The position numbers were made by a program, and so were the translations under genes. The notes beneath the pieces were generated by a model that worked only from the letters and a program-made list of their open reading frames with translations, ran no database searches and was not told where the DNA came from. Positions 1-62,492 of a DNA stretch of 64,000 nt are shown in pieces; position 1 is the stretch's first letter; every line of letters begins with the position of its first letter. Source of the stretch: Clostridia bacterium (lineage in GTDB: Bacteria > Bacillota > Clostridia > TANB77 > CAG-508); contig JAFWYK010000002.1 of NCBI GenBank assembly GCA_017517685.1, positions 11,477 through 75,476 of the forward strand, written 5' to 3'.

Positions 1-540
1 GCCCTCAAGTACAGGGTCTCCACCAGTTTTTAAGACATTGGTTTTATTCCACTTGATAGTGATATTCTTAACTTCTATCTCATCAAACCAACCGGGTGTA
101 AATGAGTATCTAAGCATATGATCTTCCTGATCAATTACGTACATATGACTCTGATGAATCGAAAAATCAAAGTTGATAATTTCGTTCTTATGATAGTCTC
201 TATCGAAATAAACATATACGTACGTTCTGCCATCTTGCTTATTATACTCGATTTTTTTAATGTTGTCAGTATGGGACTCGATTTCATCCACATGTTTATT
301 AGGGATGCCAATCTTTACCCAGGAAAGCGGTCCATCAGAAGTGTCATCTAAGACCTTCCATTCAATATGGTACTTAATGTCAAGTGTACCATCAGTCCGC
401 ATATCGACCTGAATTGTGTAATCCTGAATTTCATCGAGCGGTGCAGCTGCACTTGCTTGGATAGGTGCGAACGAGAACAACAAAGCCATCAACATGCAAA
501 AAGCAGCAAGCATTCTTGTAGTTTTATTGGTTTTAGTCAT
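1..540 (-). CDS. Partial (3' end outside window) secreted/membrane protein with N-terminal signal peptide; DUF2207-like N-terminal domain
   Basis: Reverse-strand translation starts MTKTNKTTRMLAAFCMLMALLFSFAPIQASAAAPLDE...; ATG at 540-538 preceded by GGGAGGTGACGAAT RBS; visibly GC-richer than bulk genome. Confidence 0.4.
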   Translation of the reverse strand, partial: MTKTNKTTRMLAAFCMLMALLFSFAPIQASAAAPLDEIQDYTIQVDMRTDGTLDIKYHIEWKVLDDTSDGPLSWVKIGIPNKHVDEIESHTDNIKKIEYNKQDGRTYVYVYFDRDYHKNEIINFDFSIHQSHMYVIDQEDHMLRYSFTPGWFDEIEVKNITIKWNKTNVLKTGGDPVLEG

Positions 541-554
541 ATTCGTCACCTCCC

Positions 555-1973
555 TTAGAAGTCAGCCCTAAGCGGGCATGTCTGTTCAAGTTTTGCAGCA
601 AACTCTCTTGTACTTAGAGAAAGCGGTGCATTCCAAATTCTCTTCCAAGGATCTGTCAGCATGTTGCCAAGTATAGAATTAGCATTGAGCCAACTCTGAC
701 AAGGCACGACATCTCCATTCGGAGAAATGGCCATATTGCTCATGCATGCGCCACAAGTAGGCGTTGCAAGTCCAATACATTCCAACTTTTCTTCAGAAAC
801 CAGTCCCGGAGAAGTGAAGGAAATTTCCATATTGTTTTCTTGGCAATACACAGCCGCTTCTTTCAGAACTGCAAAGAGTTCATTTTCAGTTAACTGGTCC
901 TTCTTCGCATCATCATTTCTTGCATTACCAGTGAAAATAATGCCGGAACAAGATACGTACTCTACACCAAGTTCATGCAAAAACTCGAGAGTTTTCACAT
1001 AATTTTTGTTGATTTTACAAATCGGTGTATTTACACTTACATTAAGACCAGCTGCCAGCGCATTTTTAATGCCCTGAACAGTCTTATCGAAAGCATGACT
1101 TCCGGTAAGATTTTCATGTTCTTTCTTTTCGGAAGAATACAATGTAATCTGAACACTGTCCAGACTTACTTCATAAAGCCGTTTGCACAGCTCTTCAGAA
1201 AGCAAGATACCATTTGTATTCAACCTAGTGACAAACCACTTCGCGTGTTCAATGAGCTCCACAAGATCATTTCTCATGGTAGGCTCTCCGCCGGTGAATG
1301 TGAGCTGAGGAATATAAGCTTCACGACACTTGTCGATAATCTTCTTCCAGTCATCAGTAGACAGCTCTTCTACTTCTGCTTGATGCTGACCAGCAGCATA
1401 GCAGTTCTTACATTTCTGGTTACAATGCCAATGACCATCTCTAGTCATAGCACTTACCATCAGGTCCATTCTGTGAGGGGCATTCATGTATGGTGCATAT
1501 TCGCCAATACTCATGTAAGGAATTTCAACCTCAGGAATATTGCCATATGCAACATCAAGCAGTGCCTTAAACAGAACTTTCAGATCCTCCTTGAGGACTG
1601 CGTCACTTGTCTTACGGTAGATGTTCTTAACACGGAGCAGAGTATTTCTCTTAATGTTCCGCAAATCGTCTTCATCGATTTCATGTCCGCTGTAGCGATT
1701 AATCTGATCGATAAATTCGGAAAGCATGATTGTCCATGCAGGTTTGAGCGGCAAGATATCTTTACCGTTCAAAATTACAACACTGGGTGCATCAAGCTTT
1801 TCCGGACGAGGTGGAACTAAGTGAATTCTCACCACTCCAGGTCCATTGGGATTAAGGGTCGTATGTTTTACTTCCCGAAGTTCCCATAAGTACTTCTTTT
1901 CTCTTAGATTCATGTGGTTACCTCCTTGATGTATGATTTTTCTCCAAGAATTGTTTATAGCAGCCTTTAGCAA
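555..1973 (-). CDS. Radical SAM enzyme with C-terminal SPASM/twitch Cys cluster and ~170 aa N-terminal extension (RiPP-maturase-like)
   Basis: CNQKCKNCY (CxxxCxxC) at about aa 173; C-terminal CxxC...C cluster (TPTCGACMSNMAISPNGDVVPCQSW); GGEP motif; GC-richer than surrounding genes. Confidence 0.75.
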   Translation of the reverse strand: MLKAAINNSWRKIIHQGGNHMNLREKKYLWELREVKHTTLNPNGPGVVRIHLVPPRPEKLDAPSVVILNGKDILPLKPAWTIMLSEFIDQINRYSGHEIDEDDLRNIKRNTLLRVKNIYRKTSDAVLKEDLKVLFKALLDVAYGNIPEVEIPYMSIGEYAPYMNAPHRMDLMVSAMTRDGHWHCNQKCKNCYAAGQHQAEVEELSTDDWKKIIDKCREAYIPQLTFTGGEPTMRNDLVELIEHAKWFVTRLNTNGILLSEELCKRLYEVSLDSVQITLYSSEKKEHENLTGSHAFDKTVQGIKNALAAGLNVSVNTPICKINKNYVKTLEFLHELGVEYVSCSGIIFTGNARNDDAKKDQLTENELFAVLKEAAVYCQENNMEISFTSPGLVSEEKLECIGLATPTCGACMSNMAISPNGDVVPCQSWLNANSILGNMLTDPWKRIWNAPLSLSTREFAAKLEQTCPLRADF

Positions 1974-2059
1974 ACCGCATCAACTCTTGTCAGAAATTGT
2001 ACCGCGTAAAATTATATCATATTTACATAATATTTTCAAGGAAAAACCTATTATAATCA

Positions 2060-2092
2060 ATAAAAAAGACAATAGGACCATTTCCTATTGTC
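2060..2092 (-). terminator. Rho-independent terminator downstream of tyrS
   Basis: GACAATAGGaccatttCCTATTGTC hairpin followed by a T-run on the minus strand. Confidence 0.55.
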
Positions 2093-2112
2093 TAAATAAA
2101 AATTCTATAAAA

Positions 2113-3346: not shown

Positions 3347-3637
3347 TTATAAGCTAACTTTTCCTTCTGCTTTTTTACCTTCTAATCCAGTTGTTGCATC
3401 AACTTCTGGAATATAGATACCAGCAAATTCTTCATAGCCCAAATATCGATTTAAATTTCTTGCACTTATACCTGTTGATGCTGAAATTTCTGTTTTAGTA
3501 ACACCGCTAACATAGCTGTCTGCAAAAAATCCTTTTAATTTACTTAAATCTGCTAAATCTTTTTTCTCGCATTCATGGCAAACTTCAACATCTGATGCAT
3601 AAAATTTTCCACAACGAGCACATCTTTTTAGTTCCAT
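3347..3637 (-). CDS. Small zinc-ribbon plus HTH-like protein, co-transcribed upstream of tyrS
   Basis: CARCGK...CHECEK zinc ribbon; start moved to the MELK ATG because GGAGGT lies 8 nt upstream; only a 19 nt gap to tyrS. Confidence 0.5.
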   Translation of the reverse strand: MELKRCARCGKFYASDVEVCHECEKKDLADLSKLKGFFADSYVSGVTKTEISASTGISARNLNRYLGYEEFAGIYIPEVDATTGLEGKKAEGKVSL

Positions 3638-3713
3638 ATTATTCAGACCTCCCATAATTTTATATTGCTTATTTTATCATATCTTTCGAAAAAAAGATAT
3701 AATTTTTGTAAAT

Positions 3714-20479: not shown

Positions 20480-20828
20480 CTTTAAAGTAAATCTATAAGC
20501 CGGGTTCTGTCGTGGATAGTCATTTATCTAGAATATATATTGCTATATATTTCAAGCCACACAAATCGAGAAAATGGCGAGCAGCCTTAACTTTCTCTAC
20601 AAGGTGTTGCTCCAGATAGGGTTTACACAGCCGATATATCACTATACCGCTGGTGAGCTCTTACCTCACCTTTTCACCTGAACCATATTTCTATGGTTGT
20701 TATTTTCTGTTGCACTTTCCCTAAGGTTACCCTCGCTTGACGTTATCAAGTATCATTGCTCTATGGAGCCCGGACTTTCCTCTTGTGAATCCTTTCGAAT
20801 TTCACCAGCGACTATCCAATTTACTCTA
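20480..20828 (-). ncRNA. rnpB: RNase P RNA (bacterial type)
   Basis: Minus strand reads GAGGAAAGTCCGGGCTCCATAGAGCA near the 5' end and ACAGAACCCGGCTTATAG near the 3' end; P1 complementarity AGTAAAT/ATTTACT; GC-rich island between AT-rich flanks. Confidence 0.85.
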
Positions 20829-59079: not shown

Positions 59080-60024
59080 TTATTTCACTCGACGTCTCAG
59101 CAATTTTGCCTCGAGCCAAGTAGACAGATAGTCATAGATTTCCAGATGATTGGCTTCATGCAGGATATCATGACGCAGTCCAGGATACATTTTCAAAGTG
59201 GTATCACGTAGACCTGTGCGGATGAAAGACGCATAGAGTTTTTCGACTCCCTTACCGAAATCCCCTACGGGATCATCCTCACCGGAGATAATCAGGATTG
59301 GCAGTTTTTTTCTCATTACGGCTACGTTCATCGGGTCCTGAGCATAAGCAATGCCGCTAAGCATTTCTCTGAACAGTCCAGGTGTAACATAGTTGCCTCT
59401 CTTGCGATCAGCAATGTAAGCGTCCAGACCATTACGGTCAGAACACAGCCAATCAAATCCAGTGCGATTCGGTGCAAAATGCCTGTTGTAAGTATCGAAG
59501 GTAAGCATATCAATGAAATCACTCTCATCTCCATCTCCACATCTTAACTTTTCAATCCAGGCCGCGAACAGTCCAATCTTAATCTCGAAAGATGCCTTAT
59601 TGCCGCTTCCCATAATGATGGCAGCATCGACTTTCTTCGGATAGTTGATCAGGTATGTTCTCACGAGGTAAGACCCCAGTGAAAATCCCATCATCCCGTA
59701 AGGAATGCCAGGATATCTTGCCTTGGTGTTTTCAAGCAGTCTGTCCAAATCTTCAACTGCGTAATTCCAGCTACCTTTCGGGCCAAAATACATTTCGGGT
59801 GCGTCTGCTGCAACAGACATGCCATGACCAATGTGATCGTTGCCAATAACAACAAATCCTTTACTTACCAAAAACTTTGCGAAAGCATCATATCTGTCGA
59901 TATATTCGGTGATGCCATGCGCGATTTGCAAAACGGCAATCGGTTCTTGGTCAGGTACCCATTCGATTGCATGGATTTTTGTAACTCCATCATAAGAGTC
60001 GTACGCGAATTCTCGTTTCTTCAT
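59080..60024 (-). CDS. Alpha/beta hydrolase (lysophospholipase/monoglyceride lipase-like), GC-rich
   Basis: GFSLGS nucleophile elbow (GxSxG); HGITEY; visibly GC-richer than neighbours. Confidence 0.7.
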   Translation of the reverse strand: MKKREFAYDSYDGVTKIHAIEWVPDQEPIAVLQIAHGITEYIDRYDAFAKFLVSKGFVVIGNDHIGHGMSVAADAPEMYFGPKGSWNYAVEDLDRLLENTKARYPGIPYGMMGFSLGSYLVRTYLINYPKKVDAAIIMGSGNKASFEIKIGLFAAWIEKLRCGDGDESDFIDMLTFDTYNRHFAPNRTGFDWLCSDRNGLDAYIADRKRGNYVTPGLFREMLSGIAYAQDPMNVAVMRKKLPILIISGEDDPVGDFGKGVEKLYASFIRTGLRDTTLKMYPGLRHDILHEANHLEIYDYLSTWLEAKLLRRRVK

Positions 60025-61012: not shown

Positions 61013-61104
61013 ATAACAACTACCTCCTACTACTGTCTATTAATTAATATGACAAGATACCTTAATATTTTACCACATTTTGAGTATGCTTTCAATCTCA
61101 CATT

Positions 61105-61133
61105 TTGACTTTTATGTTAACTCATGCTATAAT
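61105..61133 (+). promoter_or_regulatory. Near-consensus sigma-A promoter with extended -10
   Basis: TTGACT - 17 nt - TGcTATAAT, about 100 nt upstream of the 61236 start. Confidence 0.5.
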
Positions 61134-61235
61134 TATTGTATGAGTTTTACTCATATATTTCCCGTGGTGGGCTCGTCTCTTACTACTATACTTGATGGTG
61201 CCCACTGCCGTACATGTGGGAGAATGAGGATTAAG

Positions 61236-61766
61236 ATGAATAAGAAGACTCTTCGGCACAAGGGAATCCACACTGTTCGCGGTACTTACAGCACTGTTTA
61301 CAAGGATGTTAACTTTTCAAGAAGCCATCCTTTTGCATCATATGCAATCATTGTAGCAGTTCTGATTCTCGTCGCACTTTTGATGGTCCCTGTCTTTTTC
61401 AAGACTTCATCTATTACAATTTACAATCCCGATTCTAATAGTTGGACAAAGCAAATCACGGCTTATTCAAGCCAAATGATAAGTGAGAAAAAACTTTCTC
61501 GCCAAAACATTGATTTGTTCAAATCTAACAATTACATCGTTGTTGTTGATTGTAATTATGAATGTATCGACATCGCATACCAATACTCGGATTCAAACGA
61601 GTGGCTTGTGCCCGGTTCTATTTACCTCGGTAACGATCAATACTCAATCAATGCTGTCCCTGTTACATTAAATCGCAGTATTAACGCAAAATATGTAACA
61701 TACCGAATTGAGATTTACACCGACTCTGGAACCGAAACGGTATACTTCTCAACTAAGTTTCAATAA
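61236..61766 (+). CDS. Single-pass membrane-anchored hypothetical protein, GC-richer
   Basis: Start set at MNKKTLRHKG because GAGGA lies 5 nt upstream; TM helix IIVAVLILVALLMVPVFF; opposite strand to all neighbours. Confidence 0.45.
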   Translation: MNKKTLRHKGIHTVRGTYSTVYKDVNFSRSHPFASYAIIVAVLILVALLMVPVFFKTSSITIYNPDSNSWTKQITAYSSQMISEKKLSRQNIDLFKSNNYIVVVDCNYECIDIAYQYSDSNEWLVPGSIYLGNDQYSINAVPVTLNRSINAKYVTYRIEIYTDSGTETVYFSTKFQ

Positions 61767-62409: not shown

Positions 62410-62492
62410 TGGTGCCCGAGGCGGGACTCGAACCCGCATGGTTTCCCGCACGATTTTGAGTCGTGTGCGTCTGCCAATTCCGCCACTTGGGC
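62410..62492 (-). tRNA. tRNA-Leu (anticodon CAA) with encoded CCA
   Basis: Cloverleaf by eye: acceptor GCCCAAG/CTCGGGC, D-arm GCG-GAATTGGCAGA-CGC, anticodon loop CTCAAAA, long variable arm, T-arm GCGGG-TTCGAGT-CCCGC, ACCA end. Confidence 0.85.

Follow-up and report, generated by a model that had tools for sequence, protein, structure and literature searches.

A radical SAM/SPASM enzyme and a membrane protein with a Cys-Ala repeat tail as a putative maturase-substrate module of gut and rumen Clostridia

The first two kilobases of a 64,000-nt stretch of DNA from a Clostridia bacterium (GTDB lineage TANB77; CAG-508; assembly GCA_017517685.1, contig JAFWYK010000002.1, positions 11,477 to 75,476; hereafter, the window) encode, on the reverse strand, a radical S-adenosylmethionine (rSAM) enzyme with a SPASM domain and, directly after it, the beginning of a membrane protein, here termed the partner. 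We propose that the two genes constitute a self-contained bicistronic maturase-substrate module, with the Cys-rich C-terminal tail of the partner as the substrate, and put the probability of this reading at roughly 60%. Domain content, gene pairing, motif conservation and predicted topology are results of the analysis; beyond these, we strongly infer that the enzyme acts on the tail, and thioether cross-links are probably the product, by analogy with characterised enzymes. The general kind of system, in which an rSAM/SPASM maturase and its Cys-rich substrate are genetically linked, is already known. Judging from the sequences, the new elements would be a membrane-tethered protein as substrate, a near-invariant motif and a recognition-type domain that has no detectable relatives.

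The original prediction, made from the letters of the window, described a maturase of the type acting on peptides that ribosomes make and that are modified after translation (RiPPs), with no visible precursor gene and a substrate encoded beyond the window edge or elsewhere. The likely substrate does lie beyond the edge; however, it is the C-terminal tail of the neighbouring protein and not the product of a small precursor gene, as seen in the complete locus L001 and in 80 of 81 loci.

The gene pair and its coordinates

Six-frame listing of open reading frames (ORFs) gave the enzyme as 555..1973 (-), 472 aa, starting from TTG. We place its start at ATG 1913, hence 452 aa, because AGGAGG stands 8 nt before this codon and the homologues share the Met: the N-terminus MN(L)RE... 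is common to all of them, and their length is 451-463 aa. The partner gene begins at 540, 14 nt past the enzyme stop, and runs off window position 1, so that its transmembrane (TM) helix and Cys-rich tail are encoded beyond that position. The complete partner, 313 aa, was found at L001 11374-12315, a locus taken as the same genome as the window. Furthermore, a protein 99% identical to the enzyme was present on 11 metagenome contigs, and the six shown share the neighbour genes of the window. The features of the pair are as follows.

555..1913 (-): rSAM/SPASM enzyme gene, 452 aa, stop TAA 557-555; from the ORF, Pfam and homologues with the same start Met
1921..1926 (-): ribosome-binding site AGGAGG of the enzyme gene, read from the sequence
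1509..1913 (-): N-terminal domain of the enzyme, residues 1-135, family-specific; candidate substrate-recognition domain
1401..1424 (-): CX3CX2C motif C164-N-Q-K-C168-K-N-C171, from the sequence
981..1424 (-): radical SAM core, PF04055 match, residues 164-311, E 9.7e-22
576..755 (-): SPASM domain, PF13186, residues 387-446, with invariant C387-x2-C390-x14-C405 ... C446
554-549 (-): ribosome-binding site GGGAGG of the partner gene, which starts 14 nt after the enzyme stop
1..540 (-): partner gene, 5' part with codons 1-180 of 313, encoding the signal peptide and the larger part of the beta-sandwich ectodomain
448..540 (-): predicted signal peptide of the partner, residues 1-31, ...IQASA/AAP, with the A-S-A site as seen in the letters and cleavage there presumed

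Pairing across genomes

When a collection with one genome per species was scanned with a pattern, 571 matches were confirmed by tblastn; the best 80 loci come mostly from Lachnospiraceae and from further Clostridia of the gut and the rumen. Cultured carriers include Butyrivibrio hungatei, Pseudobutyrivibrio xylanivorans and Sporobacter termitidis. An ORF bearing the tail motif G[GS]GRAGC lies directly downstream of the rSAM gene and on the same strand in 80 of 81 loci; in the one remaining locus, a contig of 2.9 kb, the sequence stops 479 nt past the rSAM gene. The two genes are mostly separated by a few tens of nt and often overlap; calling of the longest ORFs produced up to 481 nt of apparent overlap. 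Two partner copies were found in five loci, namely L039, L052, L059, L065 (second copy divergent upstream) and L016 (second copy 1.6 kb downstream).

ORFs within approximately 5 kb on either side were clustered over the 81 loci, the set to which all statements on neighbouring genes refer. Only the enzyme and the partner were universal, and the next real family, an ABC (ATP-binding cassette) ATPase, occurred in 18 loci. No small ORF family, protease, exporter or transporter was conserved within this distance, and no sulfatase, heme, molybdenum cofactor (Moco), pyrroloquinoline quinone (PQQ) or dehydrogenase genes were conserved near the enzyme. In the reverse direction, look-ups from three partner proteins placed an rSAM gene directly upstream in all three. 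The most divergent family member checked, with 31% identity in the N-terminal domain, still precedes a partner-like gene. Moreover, pairwise identities of enzymes and partners covary (Pearson 0.74, 3156 pairs).

Full-text literature searches revealed no description of the enzyme-partner pair and no paper joining DUF2207, a family weakly matched by the partner, with radical SAM; altogether, we found no curated model, source annotation or searchable paper that describes the pair.

The partner protein and its tail

The partner of L001 consists of a signal peptide, a beta-sandwich ectodomain, a single hydrophobic helix after the beta domain (IILIIIIVIVVIVILIALF) and a predicted disordered tail (SDDDYGSSSGFGGRSRSTYIYSGGRSSCACVSSCACACACAGGGRAGCSKKDFYNTNVKSVDLIKILEE) that ends in SSCACVSSCACACACAGGGRAGCSKKDFY. 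The same plan was observed among 85 partners, 300-440 aa in length: an ectodomain of about 190 residues is followed by a single TM helix and then by 57-186 residues of tail. An N-terminal hydrophobic segment is present in 83 of them. Cys residues number 5-14 in the tail, whereas the ectodomain has a median of one; the tail follows the consensus (x-S-S-C-A)n-(C-A)2-7-G-G/S-G-R-A-G-C-S/T-x-K-D-F-Y-x-T-x-L-K, located about 20 residues before the C-terminus and followed by a short amphipathic helix. GxGRAGCxxKDFY is kept in 79 of the 85 partners, after 2-7 Cys-Ala units, and C-x-x-K-[DE] in 81; a C-x3-D unit is thus part of the motif. Since the codons of the Cys-Ala units differ synonymously from genome to genome, selection on the repeat acts at the protein level.

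An AlphaFold2 (AF2) model of the partner from 78 sequences predicted helix 4-24, the beta-sandwich at residues 36-202 with a predicted local distance difference test score (pLDDT) of ~90-97, the TM helix at 223-244 and a disordered Cys segment at 249-292 (pLDDT below 50), then short helices. The predicted disorder would make the tail peptide-like and accessible. From the signal peptide and the single TM helix, the tail is predicted to lie in the cytoplasm, in the same compartment as the signal-less enzyme.

The neighbour had been called DUF2207-like, and this holds as a weak, sub-threshold match only (PF09972, E 0.016, 15.9 bits against a cut-off of 24.4, residues 37-111). No NCBIfam model matches the partner, and none of the 120 partner homologues listed has an entry in the precomputed Pfam field, the family being unnamed in the database. 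The ectodomain resembles subunits of the eukaryotic oligosaccharyltransferase complex, presumably the luminal domain of ribophorin I/Ost1, and the N-domain of M1 aminopeptidases.

It should be added that long partners (387-441 aa; L039, L041, L052-L078 and other Lachnospiraceae) carry a conserved zinc-ribbon-like insert CPxCGAPR...EGK..C.YCG in the tail, as well as roughly 60 aa of spacer sequence that separates the Cys-Ala motif from the TM helix. Such an insert fits a cytoplasmic location of the tail.

With the 44-aa tail alone as a query, the search retrieved just 22 proteins, all of them short and, by their look, pieces of genes or chimeras of assembly, and yielded no sign of a stand-alone precursor. 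Among short or fused proteins with the tail motif, P0241, P0260, P0261 and P0307 look like chimeras of assembly or gene calling: the forms seen were an enzyme N-terminus joined to the tail, an adapter-like start MCIRDS, a DnaJ-like start and a 602-aa fusion of enzyme and partner. These should not be taken as stand-alone precursors.

Domains and classification of the enzyme

Three Pfam models matched the enzyme above their curated cut-offs: PF04055 (Radical_SAM, 78 bits against 29.5), PF13353 (Fer4_12, E 1.5e-9) and PF13186 (SPASM, E 2.6e-8, 34.4 bits against 21.5). These matches bear out the prediction of an rSAM/SPASM enzyme with a Cys cluster at its C-terminus, the position of PF13186 placing it in the SPASM subfamily. 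The CxxxCxxC motif, expected at about residue 173, is present at residues 184-191 of the 472-aa ORF, i.e., 164-171 of the 452-aa protein, and its three Cys are invariant across 81 homologues. Together with PF04055, this motif makes the enzyme a member of the radical SAM superfamily; the AF2 model, built from 81 sequences (pLDDT 86, predicted template modelling score 0.85), has alternating beta/alpha elements and predicts the N-terminal domain, the rSAM barrel and the SPASM region in this order. Seven conserved Cys follow the core: C299-x16-G-x5-C322, C357 (>=90%), C387-x2-C390-x14-C405 and C446.

In Foldseek comparisons of the model with the Protein Data Bank (PDB), SkfB, SuiB and CteB were at the top, with alignments of 425-470 columns, and anSME (anaerobic sulfatase-maturating enzyme), PqqE and MoaA aligned over 270-350 columns. 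SkfB, SuiB and CteB, the nearest folds, are peptide maturases with N-terminal peptide-binding domains, which supports the proposed reading. Sequence matches in the PDB were GDGT-MAS, CteB (second-best), BlsE, SkfB, PqqE, MoaA and SuiB, with E-values from 1e-11 to 1e-6.

The NCBIfam scan matched 72 families, none close to its cut-off. The best was NirJ2 with 118 bits against 500; scores and cut-offs for NirJ, AhbC, AhbD, PqqE and MoaA were 118/500, 102/500, 99.5/650, 98/381 and 100/325, respectively, and for anSME, too, no model reached its cut-off. Classification by profiles thus did not lead to a non-RiPP family, in line with the original prediction. The model of the tetraether lipid synthase Tes gave 60 bits, and TIGR04340 gave 61 bits against a cut-off of 400. 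Across Pfam, NCBIfam and PADLOC, the enzyme had superfamily-level matches only and the partner none above cut-off.

The N-terminal domain

A domain of about 170 aa, of the size of a RiPP recognition element (RRE), had been predicted ahead of the core. The extension is real, spans ~135-160 aa, is conserved family-wide and has a confident AF2 fold; no sequence match, in turn, supports its identity as an RRE, and only the predicted topology fits. The elements of the model are helix 3-11, strands 16-20, 28-33, 44-48 and 52-56, and helices 58-74, 81-98 and 104-122, with pLDDT mostly 80-96, and 22 columns are invariant among 20 diverse sequences.

A search of 1.84 billion representatives with this domain recovered solely the present rSAM family (228 clusters), and in the rows listed, the match is at the N-terminal end of the protein. 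The domain has no Pfam match, and none of its 20 sequences scanned hit PqqD (PF05402) at E <= 10; comparison of its profile with the PDB produced no match under E 0.06 and no protein with an RRE; hhalign against PqqD returned a probability of 0.2%, the PqqD sequence itself being Pfam-verified at E 6e-16. RREs are winged helices in which a three-stranded sheet is followed by three helices, and the peptide is bound as an extra strand. We call the domain RRE-like solely with regard to its predicted topology, four strands and then three helices, and regard it as a candidate substrate-recognition domain of its own kind for which relatives were not detected.

Proposed mechanism and comparison with characterised systems

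Characterised SPASM enzymes that carry an extra N-terminal domain and are encoded beside a Cys-rich polypeptide are thioether-forming maturases. Considering these precedents together with the Cys ladder, the GGG turn and the C-x3-D segment of the tail, we propose a SAM-dependent cross-linking of Cys to carbon. The N-terminal domain of the cytoplasmic enzyme would dock on the conserved part of the tail; the rSAM cluster would cleave SAM into a 5'-deoxyadenosyl radical, which would abstract a hydrogen atom from a tail residue; and a tail Cys held on an auxiliary cluster would then close the thioether. Such a link could lie within the invariant C-x3-D unit, as in PapB, and/or reach from the Cys-Ala ladder to residues past the GGG turn. 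The product probably stays attached, i.e., the modified tail would remain on the membrane protein, as neither a protease nor an exporter is conserved alongside the two genes.

The closest characterised systems are the ranthipeptide maturases CteB (substrate SCIFF) and PapB (freyrasin), which likewise combine an rSAM core, a SPASM domain and an N-terminal extra domain, and whose Cys-rich substrate is likewise encoded beside the enzyme. PapB cross-links Cys to Asp in CX3D motifs, to which the C-x3-D unit of the partner tail may correspond, and the auxiliary cluster of CteB binds the substrate Cys (PMC10177961). In contrast to their substrates, peptides of about 45 aa, the putative substrate is here the tail of a membrane protein of 300-440 aa; the N-terminal domain has no detectable sequence relation to RREs, and the spacing of the SPASM Cys differs. 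Conceptually, the closest working likeness is QhpD with QhpC, the gamma subunit of quinohemoprotein amine dehydrogenase, where an rSAM-SPASM enzyme cross-links Cys in a retained functional polypeptide and installs thioethers in a protein subunit, not in a secreted peptide (PMC10114670). QhpC, however, is soluble, resides in the periplasm and has a cofactor and partner subunits, whereas the present tail is membrane-tethered and built on a Cys-Ala repeat; moreover, no dehydrogenase genes accompany the enzyme.

A structural neighbour, anSME, is another rSAM-SPASM enzyme whose target is a Cys within a full-length protein. Unlike the present enzyme, it is devoid of an N-terminal domain (~330 aligned columns, compared with 425-470 for RiPP maturases), and its target motif C/S-x-P/A-x-R is absent from the partner tail. 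As a lead only, TIGR04340 may be added, the TIGRFAMs model for the rSAM/SPASM family of ACGX-repeat (Ala-Cys-Gly-Xaa) peptides. That system presumably has a comparable substrate with a short-period Cys/Ala repeat; the repeat here is, by contrast, Cys-Ala, has the fixed cap GGGRAGC-xx-KDFY and is borne by a membrane protein. On the partner side, DUF2207 proteins share the signal peptide, extracytoplasmic beta domain, TM segment and low-complexity Gly/Ser-rich C-terminus, but the partner differs from them in its sub-threshold match, single TM helix, (CA)n-GGGRAGC-xx-KDFY tail and pairing with an rSAM enzyme.

Going one step further, and tentatively, since we consider it somewhat doubtful, the pair could represent an undescribed system in which a Cys ladder, cross-linked or otherwise radical-modified, is formed on the cytoplasmic tail of a surface-exposed membrane protein by a dedicated enzyme that has its own kind of recognition domain, in other words, a membrane-tethered RiPP that is never released. 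If this were true, hundreds of gut and rumen Clostridia would own a modified intracellular module coupled to an extracellular beta-sandwich, and this module might be redox-active, metal-active or signalling. A modified tail would also provide a protein-tethered case beside QhpD/QhpC and a first functional handle on DUF2207-like membrane proteins.

Enzymes of the rSAM/SPASM group are the main source of new peptide chemistry, and their genome mining usually seeks small precursor genes and RRE domains that fit known models. The present family would escape such mining in both respects, because its putative substrate is hidden in the last part of a membrane protein of 300-440 aa and no RRE model fits its N-terminal domain. 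The near-invariant (CA)n-GGGRAGC-xx-KDFY segment offers a short, synthesisable substrate, and the presence of the pair in cultured Butyrivibrio, Pseudobutyrivibrio and Sporobacter makes it directly testable.

Counter-evidence and alternative explanations

Several observations weigh against the tail as the substrate of the enzyme, and it should be stated that this assignment is computational throughout. Firstly, a full-length enzyme, P0360 (L089 2368-3738), has no adjacent partner and is followed by a gene for pyrimidine-nucleoside phosphorylase, and P0409 (L088 481-1644, 387 aa) has the N-terminal domain but no CX3CX2C and is possibly a pseudo-rSAM protein. Secondly, the canonical SPASM pattern of seven Cys is CX9-15GX4C ... 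CX2CX5CX3C ... C, with two auxiliary clusters, and the spacing in the enzyme is non-canonical, with CX2C-X14-C in place of CX2CX5CX3C. Thirdly, the profiles do not single out thioether-forming enzymes: the top of the NCBIfam list is NirJ2, WgkB, AhbD, MoaA and PqqE, the PapB model reached only 55 bits (cut-off 340), and the model of the SCIFF maturase was not among the 25 best matches. Furthermore, the N-terminal domain shows no sequence similarity to known RREs, and a Cys-rich CxCxC tail could bind a metal or an Fe-S cluster unmodified.

The last point leads to the main rival explanation, which we regard as unlikely: the tail would be a metal- or Fe-S-binding module, metallothionein-like in its CxCxC, and the enzyme would be linked to it in another way, for example with the tail delivering or scaffolding clusters or electrons and a small molecule or lipid at the membrane as the real substrate. 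The alternating Cys-x-Cys pattern with 5-14 Cys, the zinc-ribbon-like CPxCG...CxYCG of long tails and the lack of a conserved protease or exporter all agree with it, and the lipid-modifying GDGT-MAS and Tes do appear among the PDB and NCBIfam matches (60 bits for the latter), although lipid and cofactor families score far under their cut-offs. Metal binding alone can hardly explain the invariant non-Cys residues G-G-G-R-A-G and K-D-F-Y, and a dedicated extra N-terminal domain on the enzyme is what is seen in peptide maturases.

Improbable, in our opinion, is a classical RiPP system with a small precursor gene elsewhere in the genome and the neighbour as an immunity, export or receptor protein. 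This was proposed by the original prediction; the enzyme architecture does resemble the RiPP type, and the orphan enzyme P0360 would suit it. A short stand-alone precursor with a protease and/or exporter, the mark of a classical cluster, is, however, not conserved in the 81 loci, where no small ORF family recurs, and motif-bearing short proteins in the databases look like fragments or chimeras. The statement that no small Cys-rich ORF lies between the enzyme and tyrS proved correct for the window: the intergenic region 1914-2112 contains only ORFs of 21-63 aa with 0-1 Cys each. The GC-rich island of L001, in addition, comprises exactly the two genes.

A housekeeping or other known non-RiPP enzyme (anSME, a heme enzyme of the NirJ/AhbC/AhbD kind, MoaA or PqqE) is very improbable, as, despite the presence of NirJ2, AhbD, MoaA and PqqE among the top NCBIfam alignments and of anSME among the structural neighbours, all scores are 4-6 fold under the curated cut-offs, the N-terminal domain occurs in none of these enzymes, sulfatase, heme, Moco and PQQ genes are not conserved nearby and, as the check on housekeeping synteny showed, the tail-bearing partner is the only conserved neighbour.

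Locus organisation, composition and history

Upstream of the enzyme gene, the following features were recorded.

2011..2039 (-): promoter-like sequence, TTGAAA and TATAAT 17 nt apart and a TG extension, a match to the consensus only
2067..2093 (-): terminator-like hairpin with T-run, which would end the tyrS transcript and separate tyrS from the rSAM operon (L001 9823-9849)
2113-3327: tyrS, upstream neighbour of the enzyme gene

The promoter-like site matches 11 of 12 consensus positions at L001 9876-9904, and the window has the same sequence. In L001, a terminator with a 17-bp stem follows the partner gene, and the GC-rich stretch spans exactly from enzyme start to partner stop. The own promoter-like site, the bracketing terminators and the limits of the GC-rich stretch together argue for a two-gene operon.

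As predicted, the enzyme gene and its neighbour are GC-richer than the rest of the window. GC content is 0.40-0.41 in window positions 1-2000, compared with 0.23-0.33 in almost all other 1-kb bins, and GC at third codon positions (GC3) reaches 0.39 in the enzyme gene and 0.40 in the partner fragment; over the window's 52 long ORFs, its median is 0.116 (sd 0.08). An intrinsically GC-rich gene family was rejected as an explanation: the median excess of the module over its flanks is 0.02 (78 loci), and low-GC copies exist, with GC3 of 0.13-0.16 in several genomes of 27-29% GC. In the clade of the window, this excess is 0.13-0.17.

The acquisition suggested by the original prediction is plausible from GC3, yet it was not recent. 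Gene order, namely S66 peptidase, acyltransferase, a 96-aa gene, tyrS, enzyme, partner, a 231-aa gene and U32 peptidase, is shared, as far as contigs reach, by L001, L008, L009, L010 and L013, i.e., at least five species-level genomes. Among these, flanking proteins are 35-95% identical (56-95% without the fast-evolving 231-aa gene), and in the same comparison, enzymes are 70-76% and partners 60-73% identical. Recent transfer of the module was therefore rejected, as it is syntenic in five species with a divergence typical of the flanking genes; any foreign origin would predate these species for the same reasons. No convincing direct repeats or insertion scars were found at the flanks of the GC-rich island.

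Across this tyrS-to-U32-peptidase locus (L001 8589-17047; L008-L010, L013; L091/L092 are also listed), the GC3 of the module is 0.34-0.43 versus ~0.12 in the flanks. Such a lack of amelioration might come from selection at synonymous positions, from repeated replacement or from biased conversion. In one genome, a phage-type integrase gene (L090 4889-5995 (-)) lies ~400 nt downstream of the partner, which hints that the pair is able to travel on mobile DNA.

Other features of the window

Two further genes stand out by composition. One, at 59080-60024 (-), encodes an S33/alpha-beta hydrolase (PF12146, E 3e-38) with GC 0.45 and GC3 0.44; the other, at 61080-61766 (+), is a 228-aa ORF with no Pfam match and GC3 0.39. 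Since, of the 52 long ORFs, only these two and the rSAM pair greatly exceed the median GC3, they could likewise be islets of foreign DNA.

The gene tyrS lies 19 nt after a 102-aa ORF (3347-3655), and the Rfam scan of the window reported no T-box upstream of it. The only matches at Rfam gathering level in the window were a class A RNase P RNA (279 bits) at 20480-20827 (-) and a tRNA at 62413-62492 (-).

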